Positions 3,001 to 9,000 of a stretch of 24,467 nucleotides of DNA are shown here, piece by piece (the stretch's first letter is position 1; every line of letters begins with the position of its first letter). This stretch comes from an archaeon (GTDB taxonomy: Archaea > Iainarchaeota > Iainarchaeia > Iainarchaeales > 1-14-0-10-31-34), in contig JBDRIL010000012.1 in NCBI GenBank assembly GCA_043815885.1, forward strand, positions 1 to 24,467, given 5' to 3'. Made by a program: the position numbers.

Positions 3001-6000
3001 GAGCAGCATCATCGAATATAGAATTAGCTTGCGGTGACGAGCCAGAATGCATGGAAGTATTAGACAGATTTGTGGATAGTTTTAATATCAACTATAATGT
3101 TAGAGGCGATGGGATAAGAGTAAGAATTCTTTCAAAGACACTTTCCAAAATCTTTAAATTGGCTCTTGGGTTAGGGGGCAATGCTTATACAAAGCGCGTA
3201 CCTGAGTGGGTTTTTAATCTCTCAGAAAGACAGACAGCCTTGGTTTTGAAAGGATATTTAAGTGGAGATGGAGGCATAACTGGAAAACAAATCAGATGGG
3301 CTTCAGTATCAGAAGATCTTATAAAAGACATACAAACACTATTCTTACGCATAGGAATAAATTCCACTATTTTTAAGGAGACATATAACAAAAAGCGTGC
3401 ATCATCATTTCATAGTCCTTTAGGTTATATCTGGCATGGCTTGATATCTTCAAAAGATGATATGGAACTATTCATAAATAAAGTAGGTTTTGCACAAGAA
3501 TTCAAAAATAAGGCAGCATTAGAGGCTTACGGAAAACTCAAAAAATGTGGCATGCATAGAATACCAAACATGCCTCTCCTCAAAAAATGGAGGATAAAAT
3601 CTGCTACTTGGCATAAACATTCATCCATAAGAGCGTACATAGTACTTCAGCAACTTGATAAGATTAAAAATGAGTTTGAGAGGGAAAAAATAAAAAATAT
3701 TTGTAGTGGTGACCTGCATTTCCTTAAAGTAAAAAAAATAAAAAAGATCAAGAGTAGTGAAGTATATGTTTATGATATAAGCACTAAACCATTTGAGCGT
3801 TTTATTTGTTCTAATGTCCTTGTCCACAATACTGATTTCCTTAATATGTTGGCAATGGATAGACTTAAATCCAAAAAGATTTCCAAGACAAGGGCAGTTC
3901 AATCAATCTTGCCTGTTCCAATAAAGGATGAAAACCTGCATATAGGCCCTTCTGATTACATTCCCTGGCTGAATGACAGAAAGCTTTGTTTTTTGAGGAT
4001 AGAGGGAAAAAAGTTTGGAGACATTCCAATAGATATAGAGGTTAGACTGAATGTAGAAGATTCCCCTAACTCTGCCGGGGTAGTGATTGATGCAGTAAGA
4101 GCAGTAAAGATTGCATTGGACAGAAAGATTTCAGGGCCTTTGACTTCTGCTTCTGCTTATTTAATGAAGCATCCTCCGGAACAGTTTCCTGACCATTTGG
4201 CGAGAGAGATGCTGGAAGAATTCATAATAAATAAGAGAGAAAGATAATGAATGGTTCTCTACAAGAATAGGCAGAGATTCGAGAAATTATCCATTAAGAT
4301 AGGCAGTTTCTTCAGTAAATTTGGTCTTACTCCAAACCAATGGACTATTGCAACACTTATTCCAACCTTTATTGCCTTTTATTTTCTCCTACAGCAAGAC
4401 TTTCTTTTGGCTGCATTATTCTTCATTATTTCCTCTTTCTTTGATTTAATTGATGGTTCTGTTGCAAGAGTAATGGGATTGGTTACAAAGAAGGGAGCAT
4501 ACCTTGACACAATAATTGACAGATACGTTGAATTCATTATAGTTTTAGGATTGCTTTTTGCATCTCTTCCTGATTTTTTTCTTCCAGTGAGTGCATGGAT
4601 TTTAATTTACCTGTTTGGGGCTACAATGACTACTTATTCCAAGGCAGCAGCAAAGGAAAAAGAACTAACCAGAAACGAAATCAAGGGGGGATTGCTTGAA
4701 AGAGCCGAAAGACTGATACTGTTGTTTATTGGAATACTTCTGGCTTCATTCAATCCACTTTACTTGACTTACATAATTGTTGTACTGGCAATTCTTTCAA
4801 ATATTTCTGCAATAGAAAGAATACTGACTGCATTCCGCTTAAAGCCCTTATAAAAACAAGCGAACTATTTTTTCCCGCAGTAAACCATTACATGCTCTTT
4901 ATCAAATGGCTTCAGGCTTATCACTTGAATTACATTAAATTCTTTCTCTAATTTATTTGTTTCTTCCTCAAATATTTTTTCTGCTTTCTTTTCCTGTGAA
5001 ATGCTTCTTGCCTTTACCACCAGCAATCCCTTTCTTCCTTTTTTCAGGAATTTTTCTGCATTCTTAATAAAAATCTCTGCCTGGTTTTTTTGAGAGATGT
5101 CCTGATACAATAAATTGAATTCAATTCCATTTAATTCATCTTCATATCCTTCAGGCTTATCTGAATCAGCAAGAATTGGAAGAAGGTTTTTCCTCTTATC
5201 ACACAATTGAATGAATTTATGCATTGCCCTTGCACTCACATCAATTCCCACAAGCATTCCCTTTTCTCCAATTATATCGGATAAATGGCTAGCGGTTGTT
5301 CCTTCTGCTACGCCCAGATAAAGAATATTAGTGCCTTCCTTTACTGGAACTTCCTTTAATCCATTTTTTATTGCTGCTGCAAGCTTTGAACGGAATGGAT
5401 TCCAGGAACGATACTCAATTCCATCCAATTCAGTTAATTCCTCTCCGTAAACCTTCTCTCCTTTAATCATGTTCTTGGTCAGAATCTTATTCTTGAAGGA
5501 ATAAATTCCTGGAAAAATCAGTTTTACTTCCATTATTGCTTTCCTTTTACTTCCTTTACTCTTTTATCCAATTTTTTCTTTAATTCCTTTGAAATATCTT
5601 TTTTTCCAAAGTAATCCTCTTTTACTGCAATGGAGAGTTTTCCAGCAAGGCTTCTTGCAATCTTTCCCCTCTTTTCTTTCTCTACCTCTCTCAAAAGCGG
5701 ATGAGCGAAAATCACTCCATATTTAGGGGGCTTAGCTTTCTTCTTTAGATGTCTGAATAATGCTTTCTCTGCTCCAAGAATCTGTACTGTGGATGAAGGC
5801 ATTAAGGCAAGTCTTTTTGCTGAACCAGCCTTGCTTAATAGTTTTGCTCCAATTAATGGCTGGGCTAGTTCAGTAAAATTCGGGAGAAGTGACTTCATTA
5901 ATTTCTCAATATACTTCGCTAATTCCTCTCTCTCCTTTTTAATGCTTAAAGCATTTTTAGCCAAAACATGAATCTGTTCCAAATCCTCTTTTCCTATTTC

Positions 6001-9000
6001 TGAACCCATTGAAGTTAAAGCCTTGCTTTCAATTTCCTTTGCTTTTTCCTTCTTATTAAAGACCTTCAAAATATTTTTTTCCTTGAAATTCTTTCTCTCC
6101 CCTAATTCCATTAACTTCAGATAACTTTCATTGTCCTGAACAACTGCATTCAGTTCAGGGAAATGAGCTGAATACCAGTCCCTTGCATTCTCCGAGAGAA
6201 GATTGAAAATAGAATCAATGTCCCCCAATAAATTAACTGCCTTTACAATATGATAATCCCTTCCGGTATAAGCCTCGCTTACTTTTTTCTTGCTTTTTTC
6301 AATCAATCTCTTTCTCAATGCTTCCCTTTTATCCATTTTTTTCACTCTTATCTGTTTTCAGTAAACGTAATTTTTTTGTTCCTGTTATCGAATGTTACCT
6401 TAAATGCATCAAATACTCCTTTCAATCCAATTAAATTAAACTTTGTTGCCAATTCATTTGAGAACAAGACTTCGCTTCTAATTTCTTTGTTTGCCACTAT
6501 TAAAATTGTTTCAACGGAATATGCTTTAATCTTTCCTGCAGTTCCTCTCGGATAAATGACTTTTCCCTTCTTGTAATCAATTCCCAAGATTTCGGCCATG
6601 ATTGTGTTAAAGACAGAAACACTTGCCCCTGAATCAATATAGGCTGCAGTTTCAATGAGTTTATCCTTGTTCTTTATTGCAACAGGAATTATTGGAAGAA
6701 ACCTTTTTCCAACTCTCTCATAAGAATAAGAAACAGTATTAATCATAGCAAGTACACTTCATCTGCATCCTTTGGAACCTGAAATATCCTTGGATTACTG
6801 CAAAACTTCATTCCCTCTTCATAAACTTTTTTTGCATTTTTTCCATGACTAACTACCTTATTCTTATTAACAACAACCCATTCTGCTCCATATTTTCTTA
6901 TTTTCTCCCACTCAATCATTCAAAAGCACCCAAATAATATGATTTAAAATCAATAAAAACATATTCTTTTAACCCTCATTTATTTTCTCCTTTTCCTTTA
7001 ATTCCTTAATGAATTCCTCATCTCCAACCAGTGCAATTCCCTGATAACCGCATTCCCTGCACTTATAGATATCCCCCAACCTTCCCCCCATGAACCAATA
7101 GAGTTCAGTGGAATAACACTGAGGGCAGAACCTGTGCTCTTTTTCCATTGTATTAATTCTTTTACCGCAATTAATTTATAAAAAGTAGGTAGAATAAATT
7201 ATTAAAATGAAGGAAAAAACCACTAAATCCTACGAGAAAGTAATTGATTTAGCCTTAAGGAGAAACATCTTTTTCCCTACAGCAGAAATCTATGGAGAAG
7301 CATTCAGCGGATTCTATGATTATGGCGCAACAGGAGAGGCAATAAAGAGAAAGATAGTGAATAAATGGAGAAAGGAATTAGTTCAAAAAGAAGGTTTTGC
7401 GGAAATCGATGGATGCATTATTCTTCCGGAAAAAGTATTCGTTGCTTCAGGACATCTAGCTAACTTTAATGACCCCCTCACTCAGTGCAATAAATGCCAT
7501 TCCCTGCACAGAGCTGATACATTGCTGGAAGACCATGTGAATGTTAATTTTCCTGAATCAATGCCTTCAAATAAATTCGATGAAATGATTGAAGAACACA
7601 AAATTAACTGCCCTAAATGCAGTGGAGAGCTGGGAAAAGTAAAGAAATTCAATATGATGATGTCCCTGCAGATAGGCGCAACAGGAAAACAAAAAGCTTT
7701 TTTAAGACCTGAAACCTGCCAGAATATCTTCCTGAATTTTGATAGAATCTACAAGACAATGCGCCAAACCCTTCCGTTGGGAATTTCTCAGGTTGGAAGA
7801 AGCTTCAGGAACGAGATTGCTCCAAGACAGACTATTTTGAGGGTAAGGGAAATAAATCAAATGGAGACAGAAATCTTCTTCAATCCAAAGAAAATAAATG
7901 AAGTGGAAAGATTCAGTGAAATAGAGAATGTGAAAATGAACCTTCTTACACTCAATTCAAAGGAAAAGGAATTCACTGCAAAGGAATTAATTGAAAAAAA
8001 AGCAACCAGTGGAAAACTCATTGCGTATTATCTCGCAAGAATACAGCAATTGTATGACTCCTACGGAATTCCAAGAGAAAAGACAAGGTTCAGGGAATTA
8101 GGGGAAGAAGAAAAAGCATTTTATGCAATGGAGGCATTTGATTTTGAGGTCCAGACTTCCCTTGGATGGATTGAATTAATTGCATGCAATTACCGCTCAG
8201 ATTATGATCTGAAAGGGCATGCAAAGGAATCAAGAAAGGATTTAAGCGTAAAGGAAGACGGAGATAAATTCCTTCCAAATGTATTTGAAATCTCAATCGG
8301 AGTGGACAGGACACTCTATGTTTTAATTGAATTGGCTTTGAGAGAAGAAGAAAAGAAAGGCGAGAGAAGGCTTTACCTGGATTTAGCTCCTTCTGTTGCT
8401 CCCTTTATTGCCGGGGTATTTCCCTTAGTGAATAAGGATGGACTGAATGAAAAAGCAAGGGAATTATTTGCTGAACTCCAGTCCAATAAACTGGATGTAT
8501 TCTTTGACGAAAAAGCCAGTATCGGGAGAAGGTATGCAAGAATTGACGAAGTAGGTGTTCCGTTTGGAATTACTGTGGATTATGATTCAATGAAAGATGA
8601 TACAGTAACGCTTAGAGAGAGAAATTCAACGGAACAAAAAAGAGTAGCAATAAAAGAATTGCCTGAATTGCTCTGGGAGCTTGAAACAGGAAAAAAAGCC
8701 TTTAAAGAGGTTTAATTTAATTCTTTTACCACTATTTTTTTACTAAGGCCTTGGTAGCTCAATGGCGGAGCAATGCTCTCGTAAAGCATAGGTTAGGGGT
8801 TCAACTCCCCTCCAAGGCTTTTACTTCAATAACTTTATCACTATTATTGCTAATGCGAGTGGAGCGGCAACAATCAATAATCCTCCAATTATAACCAAAA
8901 CTATTCCCAGCAGGATTACTCCTACAAAGATTACTGGAACCAGTAATATCTTGAATAAGAGGCTTGGACGGAATTCAATGAATTCTTTTTCAGCCAGCTT

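Follow-up and report, generated by a model that had tools for sequence, protein, structure and literature searches.

How can a box C/D ribonucleoprotein (RNP) recruit fibrillarin when its Nop5 subunit has lost nearly all of the N-terminal domain (NTD)? The question is raised by a gene pair of an archaeon of the order Iainarchaeales (GenBank GCA_043815885.1), located in a stretch of 24,467 nucleotides (contig JBDRIL010000012.1, positions 1 to 24,467; hereafter the window). The nop5 gene (5533..6336, minus strand) encodes 267 residues from its ATG, or 270 from an alternative GTG at 6345, and its product matches PF01798 (E 1.7e-61), with archaeal Nop5 proteins as the closest PDB sequences. A preliminary description had held that this Nop5 begins at the coiled coil, without any NTD, and that the methylation complex has to come together in some other way or function with its customary bridge missing. 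The truncation is real, but the reading placed on it was only partly right. Our favored answer, to which we assign a probability of roughly 70%, is a box C/D RNP reduced to a minimum, where a single retained helix would tether fibrillarin.

The remaining protein components of such a particle are encoded in the same genome. The start of the fibrillarin gene flpA (4865..5533, minus strand; 222 residues; PF01269, E 5.4e-75) overlaps the nop5 stop by 1 nt, and the gene is whole, as previously described; its product carries the K-D-K-H tetrad (K50, D145, K174, H214), which is invariant across 50 aligned sequences. L7Ae is encoded on contig C5 (PF01248, E 1e-26). Candidate compensating changes in fibrillarin were discarded and not used as evidence, as none follows the truncation in all groups: at a conserved Tyr (Pyrococcus furiosus Y102, V95 here), full-length members of the Nitrososphaerota family likewise have V/I and Micrarchaeota have Y/F, E112 is frequent in three of the short groups with R in the fourth, and position 131 shows no conserved Arg in full-length sets.

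What is missing from Nop5 is the alpha/beta (RuvC-like) core of the NTD, approximately 110 of 132 residues (beta1-beta5 and alpha1-alpha5) when compared with the proteins of solved archaeal sRNPs (Sulfolobus solfataricus 3PLA/3ID5, P. furiosus 2NNW/3NMU). The coiled coil, tip, and K-turn/L7Ae-binding Nop domains are retained (5536..6261, minus strand), as judged by sequence and structure matches and by GAEKALF and PPK-G motifs that are invariant or almost so, and the last NTD helix and hinge are retained as well. An AlphaFold2 model (mean pLDDT 93) superposes over residues 1-266 on residues 111-377 of 3pla_A, a chain of the active Sulfolobus RNP (Z 27.2, rmsd 2.5; Z 27 also to 3nvi_A). The match between model and 3pla may reflect recall of solved structures. 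The earlier alignment of residue 8 to Sulfolobus residue 118 is borne out. Residues 1-24 (6265..6336, minus strand) correspond to Sulfolobus 111-134, the last NTD helix, rather than to the coiled coil; the helix spans residues 3-24 in the model, with pLDDT of about 78-81.

This helix, among the principal contacts of fibrillarin in the solved complexes, carries positions that were named as fibrillarin contacts in the Sulfolobus, Pyrococcus, and yeast complexes (PMC7962484). Sulfolobus Y113/Y114/L117 correspond to helix positions 3/4/7 and yeast Nop56 E148/Q151/Y158/S159/V163 to positions 4/7/14/15/19, among which 7, 15, and 19 rank with the best conserved of the helix (L7 43/50, R8 43/50, T/A15 46/50, and V/I19 46/50 in our alignment A2). 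Conservation of the helix extends to all of the short-Nop5 groups that were read. Positions 3, 6, 10, 14, and 17 are large hydrophobic residues in 77% of cases in full-length Nop5, compared with 5% in short proteins of Iainarchaeota, 20% in Micrarchaeota, and 3% in a third small-genome phylum, whereas positions 4, 7, 11, 12, 15, 19, and 23 remain 55-80% hydrophobic. As far as alignments can tell, one face has thus stayed conserved while the opposite face turned charged, giving a helix more amphipathic than that of solved Nop5 proteins, although the two faces were chosen post hoc and an unbiased 100-degree periodicity test reached only p 0.04-0.07. Several observations weigh against a tether: charge has appeared at two of the named contacts, positions 3 and 14; in the solved complexes fibrillarin is touched by two areas besides the helix, and both of them, beta1 and the beta4-alpha5 loop, are lost here; and a yeast double mutant in the corresponding helix left binding preference unchanged (PMC7962484). 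A precedent for reduction is provided by Archaeoglobus fulgidus Nop5 (1NT2), whose naturally reduced NTD of 71 residues still binds fibrillarin via hydrophobic contacts (PMC7962484); Archaeoglobus, however, retains part of the beta core, of which nothing is left here.

The charge of the helix might open another route to assembly. Its median net charge is +3 to +6 in short Nop5 and +1 in full-length proteins, and canonical NTD surfaces are acidic, unlike this basic helix, which would also fit RNA binding. The helix, together with the long basic low-complexity tails (rich in R/G/F/P/K, C- or N-terminal) of many relatives, could bind the guide-target duplex, with fibrillarin docking on the RNA-loaded particle through no stable protein contact. 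The loss of two of three contact areas and the unlinked nop5 and fibrillarin genes of Micrarchaeota would agree with such an RNA bridge. We regard it as improbable, though the strongest of the competing proposals, given that the conserved hydrophobic stripe (L7, L11, I12, V19, Y/F23) coincides with known fibrillarin contacts, that the window's Nop5 has no tail, and that the short helix of Nitrososphaerota, which arose independently, has a net charge of 0.

The bridge might instead be completed by a separate, unrecognized protein, be it the NTD core split off into its own gene or some unrelated adaptor. The preliminary description had allowed for an N-domain gene elsewhere in the genome, but its PF08156 search matched none of its own controls. 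PF21572, the archaeal NTD model, matches three of four archaeal controls and had no match above cut-off in the 121 genomes of an order sample. A profile built from 82 NTD cores, which retrieved all 30 NTDs of a different phylum (two of them in its training set), gave a best E of 0.35 against the six frames of this genome and no match at 115 short-Nop5 loci. No shared small neighbor of unknown kind stood out in the 14 largest neighbor clusters. At the nop5 5′ end there is no space for an NTD, because the stop of the upstream gene lies 3 nt ahead of the GTG at 6345. The adjoining ORFs belong to other families, with NTD profiles silent there, so that a frameshifted or split NTD upstream was rejected: a retropepsin-like ORF of 132 residues (6348..6746, minus strand; PF13650, E 0.0012, under the curated cut-off), a DUF5678 ORF of 58 residues (6743..6919, minus strand; PF18929, E 1.5e-9), and a divergent glycyl-tRNA synthetase gene (7207..8715, plus strand; PF00587 and PF03129), the latter a frequent upstream neighbor in relatives that adjoins nop5 at loci L101 and L045. 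At L305, the one place where a split was seen, a full-length nop5 carries a frameshift, as does the fibrillarin gene of that locus. The side of the helix presumed to face the core is charged, and nothing would therefore be left for an NTD core to pack on. In favor of a separate protein, genome completeness stands at 92%, archaeal NTDs show little conservation, and some relatives have extra genes separating nop5 from fibrillarin; even so, we consider it quite unlikely.

The short form, described earlier as occurring throughout Iainarchaeales, is not specific to that order. All 121 genomes sampled from the order have a PF01798 match, and 200 of the 201 sampled from the phylum match PF01269, in keeping with the earlier claim that both partners persist in the lineage. 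Among 70 Iainarchaeota nop5 loci, none has an NTD core and 64 have a start codon within six codons of the window's nop5 start (65 with L073, short on inspection), confirming a shared start; three others carry basic low-complexity N-extensions (L037, L046, L061) and two are truncated by contig ends. The same cut is found in other Iainarchaeia, and the cut point coincides with the helix start in all 30 Micrarchaeota loci without an NTD core, in 15 of 15 loci of the third phylum, and in 4 of the 12 loci from a single family of Nitrososphaerota. There, short Nop5 nests inside full-length proteins (SH-aLRT 100, quick tree), and the same boundary was therefore reached twice. Fibrillarin is not adjacent at the 30 Micrarchaeota loci, and is present in 60 of 61 genomes of that phylum. 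Two further leads were dropped: frames of 420-520 residues proved to contain low-complexity tails rather than a Nop5-fibrillarin fusion in the 26 loci read, and a short Nop5 in Thermoplasmatota, hinted at by an atlas, gave way to an NTD in all of the best 30 loci of the phylum sampled around genome G481.

The earlier statement that no convincing C/D guide exists did not hold, since two are present in this genome. A 61-nt sRNA (contig C8, 1478-1538, minus strand) displays C, D′, C′, and D boxes, with perfect C and D boxes, and forms 9 bp with the anticodon loop of tRNA-Met(CAU), placing C34 at D+5; the tRNA-Met gene lies on contig C18 at 300-375. Of the 201 phylum genomes, 22 have homologues of the guide. 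The underlying pattern was found in 25 of 201 (176 without a match) against two control matches; 23 of these 25 have CTGA (C not required), 22 a second antisense arm, and 14 a perfect C box. The guide adjoins tRNA-Met(CAT) in two of six loci checked, and Rfam C/D families gave no match to it at E up to 5. Like archaeal sR49/sR-tMet, the Cm34 guide of elongator tRNA-Met, and SNORD97, with which it was compared by features, it is a free C/D RNA with C34 at D+5; unlike them, it has an intronless target tRNA and a D′ arm, shifting in register, that is antisense to the D arm.

The second guide lies in the tRNA-Trp intron, where at least eight pairs, an NNGA box, and C34 at D+5 are found in 17 of 40 genes including that of this genome (shuffle p 0.003). 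As in the sR50/pre-tRNA-Trp intron guide, the intronic antisense elements are directed at the anticodon arm, near C34 and near position 39, but here the C34 arm alone is left and the terminal C/D boxes are degenerate or not found. Of the six relatives read that share the window's family, five have lost both Trp guides, and no Rfam C/D family matched Trp introns at gathering level. An initial Trp pattern matched largely by chance, with tRNA-Trp at 5 of the 44 loci checked. For rRNA, no guide in the genome rose above chance relative to shuffles, in scans that may miss divergent guides. A strict four-box scan gave 4 matches versus 13 and 4 in shuffles, and overlooks the Met guide on account of three mismatches in the C′ box of that guide; relaxed scans gave 344 versus 243-287, 619 versus 398-464, and 16 versus 8-15. 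Two further candidates, C21 and C36, resemble coding DNA and were found in none of five relatives each. The guide set looks small and tRNA-centered, judging from sequence patterns.

The lack of rRNA guides above chance and the shifting D′ register, reminiscent of a binding aid, could also suggest that Nop5 became a non-methylating RNA chaperone resembling Prp31 (likewise a Nop-family protein without the RuvC-like core, which arose through NTD loss according to bioRxiv 2024.06.21.599552) or U3-type RNPs, with fibrillarin acting alone, yet this has little to recommend it when both guides place C34 at D+5, the two sites known as guide-methylated in archaea, the nop5-fibrillarin gene pair is still coupled here, and Prp31, which has no methyltransferase partner, lacks the helix that the window's Nop5 has (its chains align from model residue 20-26 onward, at 24-26% identity versus 39-41% for archaeal Nop5).

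The minimal particle with a helical tether would then be assembled as known archaeal sRNPs are, with L7Ae binding the K-turns of the C/D guides and the Nop5 dimer binding via its intact coiled-coil and Nop domains. The single remaining NTD helix, on the hinge before the coiled coil, would tether fibrillarin, and its former buttress, the RuvC-like core, would have been lost as the core-packing face became charged. The products may include 2′-O-methylation of at least elongator tRNA-Met C34, directed by the free four-box sRNA, and probably of pre-tRNA-Trp C34, directed by its own intron. The preliminary interpretation is thus upheld in that the core is absent and no separate gene was found, but not in its call for another assembly or no bridge: a helix with contact positions is conserved in all short groups read, and canonical guides exist. 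With the contact helix kept and guide RNAs to match, we most probably have before us a functional machine pared down to essentials, not a new assembly route, and a reduced bridge with putative direct binding is a simpler reading than a missing one.

What is new here is the retained helix and the guides, the latter being the first candidates that we could find for these lineages; a family survey that set 300 residues as its lower limit in one round of searching would have missed proteins this short. The combination yields, from one genome, a full reconstitution set of three small proteins, one 61-nt guide, and one tRNA, as well as a compact scaffold for programmable 2′-O-methylation. The natural deletion would define which part of the Nop5 NTD recruits fibrillarin, and bears on a proposal in the literature that selection for this recruitment acted on an inserted helix and not on the dead RuvC fold. 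On a slightly favorable balance, several archaeal phyla may carry out guided 2′-O-methylation with a Nop5 whose recruiting domain is one 24-residue helix, the RuvC-derived core, a legacy of IS110-like ancestors, being dispensable and shed at least twice at one boundary, in what would be the smallest natural C/D RNP, acting mainly on tRNA wobble positions and not on rRNA.

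In the window, nop5 (positions 5533-6336, minus strand; 267 aa) is directly followed by the fibrillarin gene (4865-5533, minus strand; 222 aa), with the nop5 stop and fibrillarin start overlapping by one base. Fibrillarin is adjacent and intact, as the preliminary description had it, and retains K50, D145, K174, and H214, which we take to be its catalytic tetrad. L7Ae is encoded on another contig of the genome (C5). The gene upstream of nop5 ends 3 nt ahead of the furthest possible nop5 start, so no N-terminal domain (NTD) can be appended; a retropepsin-like ORF, a DUF5678 ORF, a zinc-ribbon ORF, and the previously noted divergent glyS lie on this side. 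Source names given for the nearest homologues include Candidatus Diapherotrites and Iainarchaeum, and one Iainarchaeota-type nop5-fibrillarin pair (locus L084) sits in a record titled Chloroflexota bacterium. Elsewhere in the window are a tandem pair of class II (D/K/N) tRNA synthetase genes (15876-18490, plus strand) and two overlapping plus-strand ORFs (1733-2596 and 2514-4247) that read like a single putative inositol-phosphate synthase gene with an intein, interrupted by a change of reading frame shortly into the intein.

Nop5 had been described as starting at the coiled coil. Alignment with full-length archaeal Nop5 instead places the start of the short proteins at that of the last NTD helix, and an AlphaFold2 model of the window's Nop5 displays this helix (residues 3-24), a break, and the coiled coil from residue 26. 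Residues 1-266 of the model align with 111-377 of 3pla_A, the Nop5 chain of a Sulfolobus RNP structure and the first-ranked Foldseek match (Z 27.2, rmsd 2.5). Since the Sulfolobus NTD spans residues 1-132 (PMC7962484, excerpt), about 22 NTD residues are left. The Pyrococcus Nop5 match earlier placed at residue 126 is correct as an index in the deposited chain and becomes 120 in entry numbering.

The truncation is real and widespread. PF01798 matches were retrieved from 121/121 genomes of the order sample and PF01269 matches from 200/201 of the phylum sample. Seventy nop5 loci from distinct Iainarchaeota genomes were read (30 best-scoring, 20 with long frames, and 20 other-order or divergent picks); 64 have a start codon within 6 codons of the window's nop5 start, one is short on inspection, three carry basic low-complexity N-terminal extensions, and two are cut by contig ends. 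Long frames proved, in the 26 loci read for them, to stem from R/G/F/P/K-rich tails, and Nop5 fusions were rejected as their source. Such low-complexity tails, reaching 260 aa, occur at the N- or C-terminus of short Nop5 (loci L009, L014, L030-L045, L037, L046, and L177). In two families (L042-L044, L074, L075, and L078), Nop5 is additionally ∼55 residues shorter internally, likely at the tip domain, with a core of ∼205 aa.

The reported loss throughout Iainarchaeales was borne out in the loci read but extends further. Nop5 is cut at this point in further orders of Iainarchaeia as well; of 120 Micrarchaeota loci, the 30 with the highest scores share the truncation (one with a G/R-rich extension), as do the 15 best among 28 loci from a third small-genome phylum and some Nitrososphaerota. 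In the Micrarchaeota loci read, fibrillarin is not adjacent to nop5, yet it is present in 60/61 genomes; the Micrarchaeota tallies count the unpublished genome G239, on whose sequence no claim is based. In a Nitrososphaeria sample of 81 genomes, the 20 top-scoring loci are all full-length. Of 12 loci read from one Nitrososphaerota family (that of G209), seven encode full-length Nop5, four encode the short form, and one is frameshifted. In a quick IQ-TREE tree of 66 rows, this short form falls within full-length Nitrososphaerota (SH-aLRT 100), which argues for an independent loss with an identical boundary. This mixed family (L298-L309) constitutes a natural paired comparison. No fibrillarin substitution parallels the truncation across all of the groups compared.

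The last NTD helix (α6 in Nop5, α7 in Nop56) is one of three fibrillarin contact areas (PMC7962484, excerpt). Its named Ss contacts Y113, Y114, and L117 correspond to positions 3, 4, and 7 of the window's Nop5, and yeast E148, Q151, Y158, S159, and V163 to positions 4, 7, 14, 15, and 19, assuming a gap-free match of position 15 to Nop56 159. Conserved among 50 short proteins are L7 (43), R8 (43), T/A15 (46), K/R16 (43), V/I19 (46), and Y/F23 (39). Positions 3, 6, 10, 14, and 17 cluster on one side of the helical wheel; large hydrophobic residues make up 77% of them across 76 full-length proteins, versus 3-20% for the three large groups of short proteins. The opposite side keeps its hydrophobic character, the faces having been chosen after the columns were seen. 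With no choice of face, the hydrophobic moment is 17-22 as against 8.9, and a test for periodicity in this change yields p 0.04-0.07 among kin that are not independent.

We propose, with a probability of roughly 0.7, that L7Ae and the Nop domain would bind K-turns, the coiled coil would dimerise Nop5, and the predicted fibrillarin-binding helix, located at the N hinge (PMC6239191, excerpt), would swing fibrillarin onto the guide-target duplex. Three observations count against a simple version: named contacts 3 and 14 have turned charged, the short helix has a net basic charge, and a double mutation in its yeast counterpart left binding preference unaltered (PMC7962484, excerpt). That fibrillarin instead docks through an RNA bridge, a reading favoured by the basic charge but not by the conserved positions, appears unlikely.

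A separate adaptor protein, such as a detached NTD core, is improbable to a still greater degree. The NTD profile PF21572 gave no match over its cut-off in the window's genome (0/1) or the order sample (0/121), with three of four archaeal controls positive. A custom profile built from 82 NTD cores detected 30/30 NTDs in a phylum sample centred on G481 (with two of these genomes in the training set), returned 0/70, 0/30, and 0/15 matches in the short groups, and reached a best E of only 0.35 in the window's genome; as that genome is 92% complete, absence of such a gene is not proven.

Although no convincing C/D guide had been reported for this genome, two were found. A four-box C/D sRNA (C8:1478-1538, minus strand; L387), recognized by its boxes and antisense arms, is a candidate guide for C34 of tRNA-Met. 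It comprises a C box (GTGATGA), a tRNA-Met D-arm antisense, D′ (ATGA), a hairpin, a degenerate C′, an anticodon-loop arm, and a D box (CTGA); the latter arm forms nine Watson-Crick pairs with tRNA-Met(CAT) (C18:300-375), placing D+5, the targeted nucleotide, on the wobble C. A 3′-half pattern prescribing antisense core and register matched 25/201 genomes versus two for the reversed control; among the elements left free, the D-box C recurs in 23, the upstream arm in 22 on inspection, and a perfect C box in 14. Homologues number 22 in 201 phylum genomes, and the strict pattern lacks a match in 176, several large families among them. The guide gene adjoins tRNA-Met(CAT) in two of six loci checked; at L404 it lies directly 3′ on the same strand. 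The family has no Rfam match. Cm34 of elongator tRNA-Met is known to be guide-directed in archaea and humans (PMC2584109 and PMC6601510, excerpts).

The second guide is a tRNA-Trp intron (C45:381-525) that forms eight pairs with positions 31-38; an NNGA box comes next, such that D+5 is C34 (shuffle p 0.003). The 201 genomes yielded 40 Trp genes, of which 17 have this C34 arm; a second arm against positions 38-45 is present in many and varies along with the exon (for example, L269, L283, and L284; L270 versus L276). The intron guide matches the sR50 arrangement (PMC7994747, excerpt). Both arms are lost in five of six other genes read from the window's family. Across L260-L297 and the window's genome, the intron guide occurs in stages of decay, with both arms, a single arm, or AT-rich hairpins instead, the last in five genomes of that family. 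No rRNA guides beyond shuffles were detected in scans that may miss divergent ones. The genome also encodes two tRNA-Ile genes with TAT anticodons (C19:1651-1726 and C45:11389-11464), which are unusual for archaea. A nonmethylating role for the complex is, beside the two C34 guides, highly improbable.

By most tests, the machine is an archaeal box C/D sRNP and works like one, differing in one defining feature, a Nop5 without the folded NTD; in Archaeoglobus Nop5 the NTD is partially reduced. PMC5558902 and PMC1865073 (excerpts) served as background. The Nop5 NTD has been read as a RuvC fold, now dead, into which a helix linked to fibrillarin recruitment was inserted (bioRxiv 2024.06.21.599552, excerpt), and a natural deletion of the core fits that reading. 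We found no description of the truncation or of these guides in the mostly open-access literature, supplementary alignments aside, on Nop5, fibrillarin, and C/D sRNAs of DPANN. The present tests qualify the proposed loss of the fibrillarin bridge: the short Nop5 is less strange than first described, yet sharply testable.
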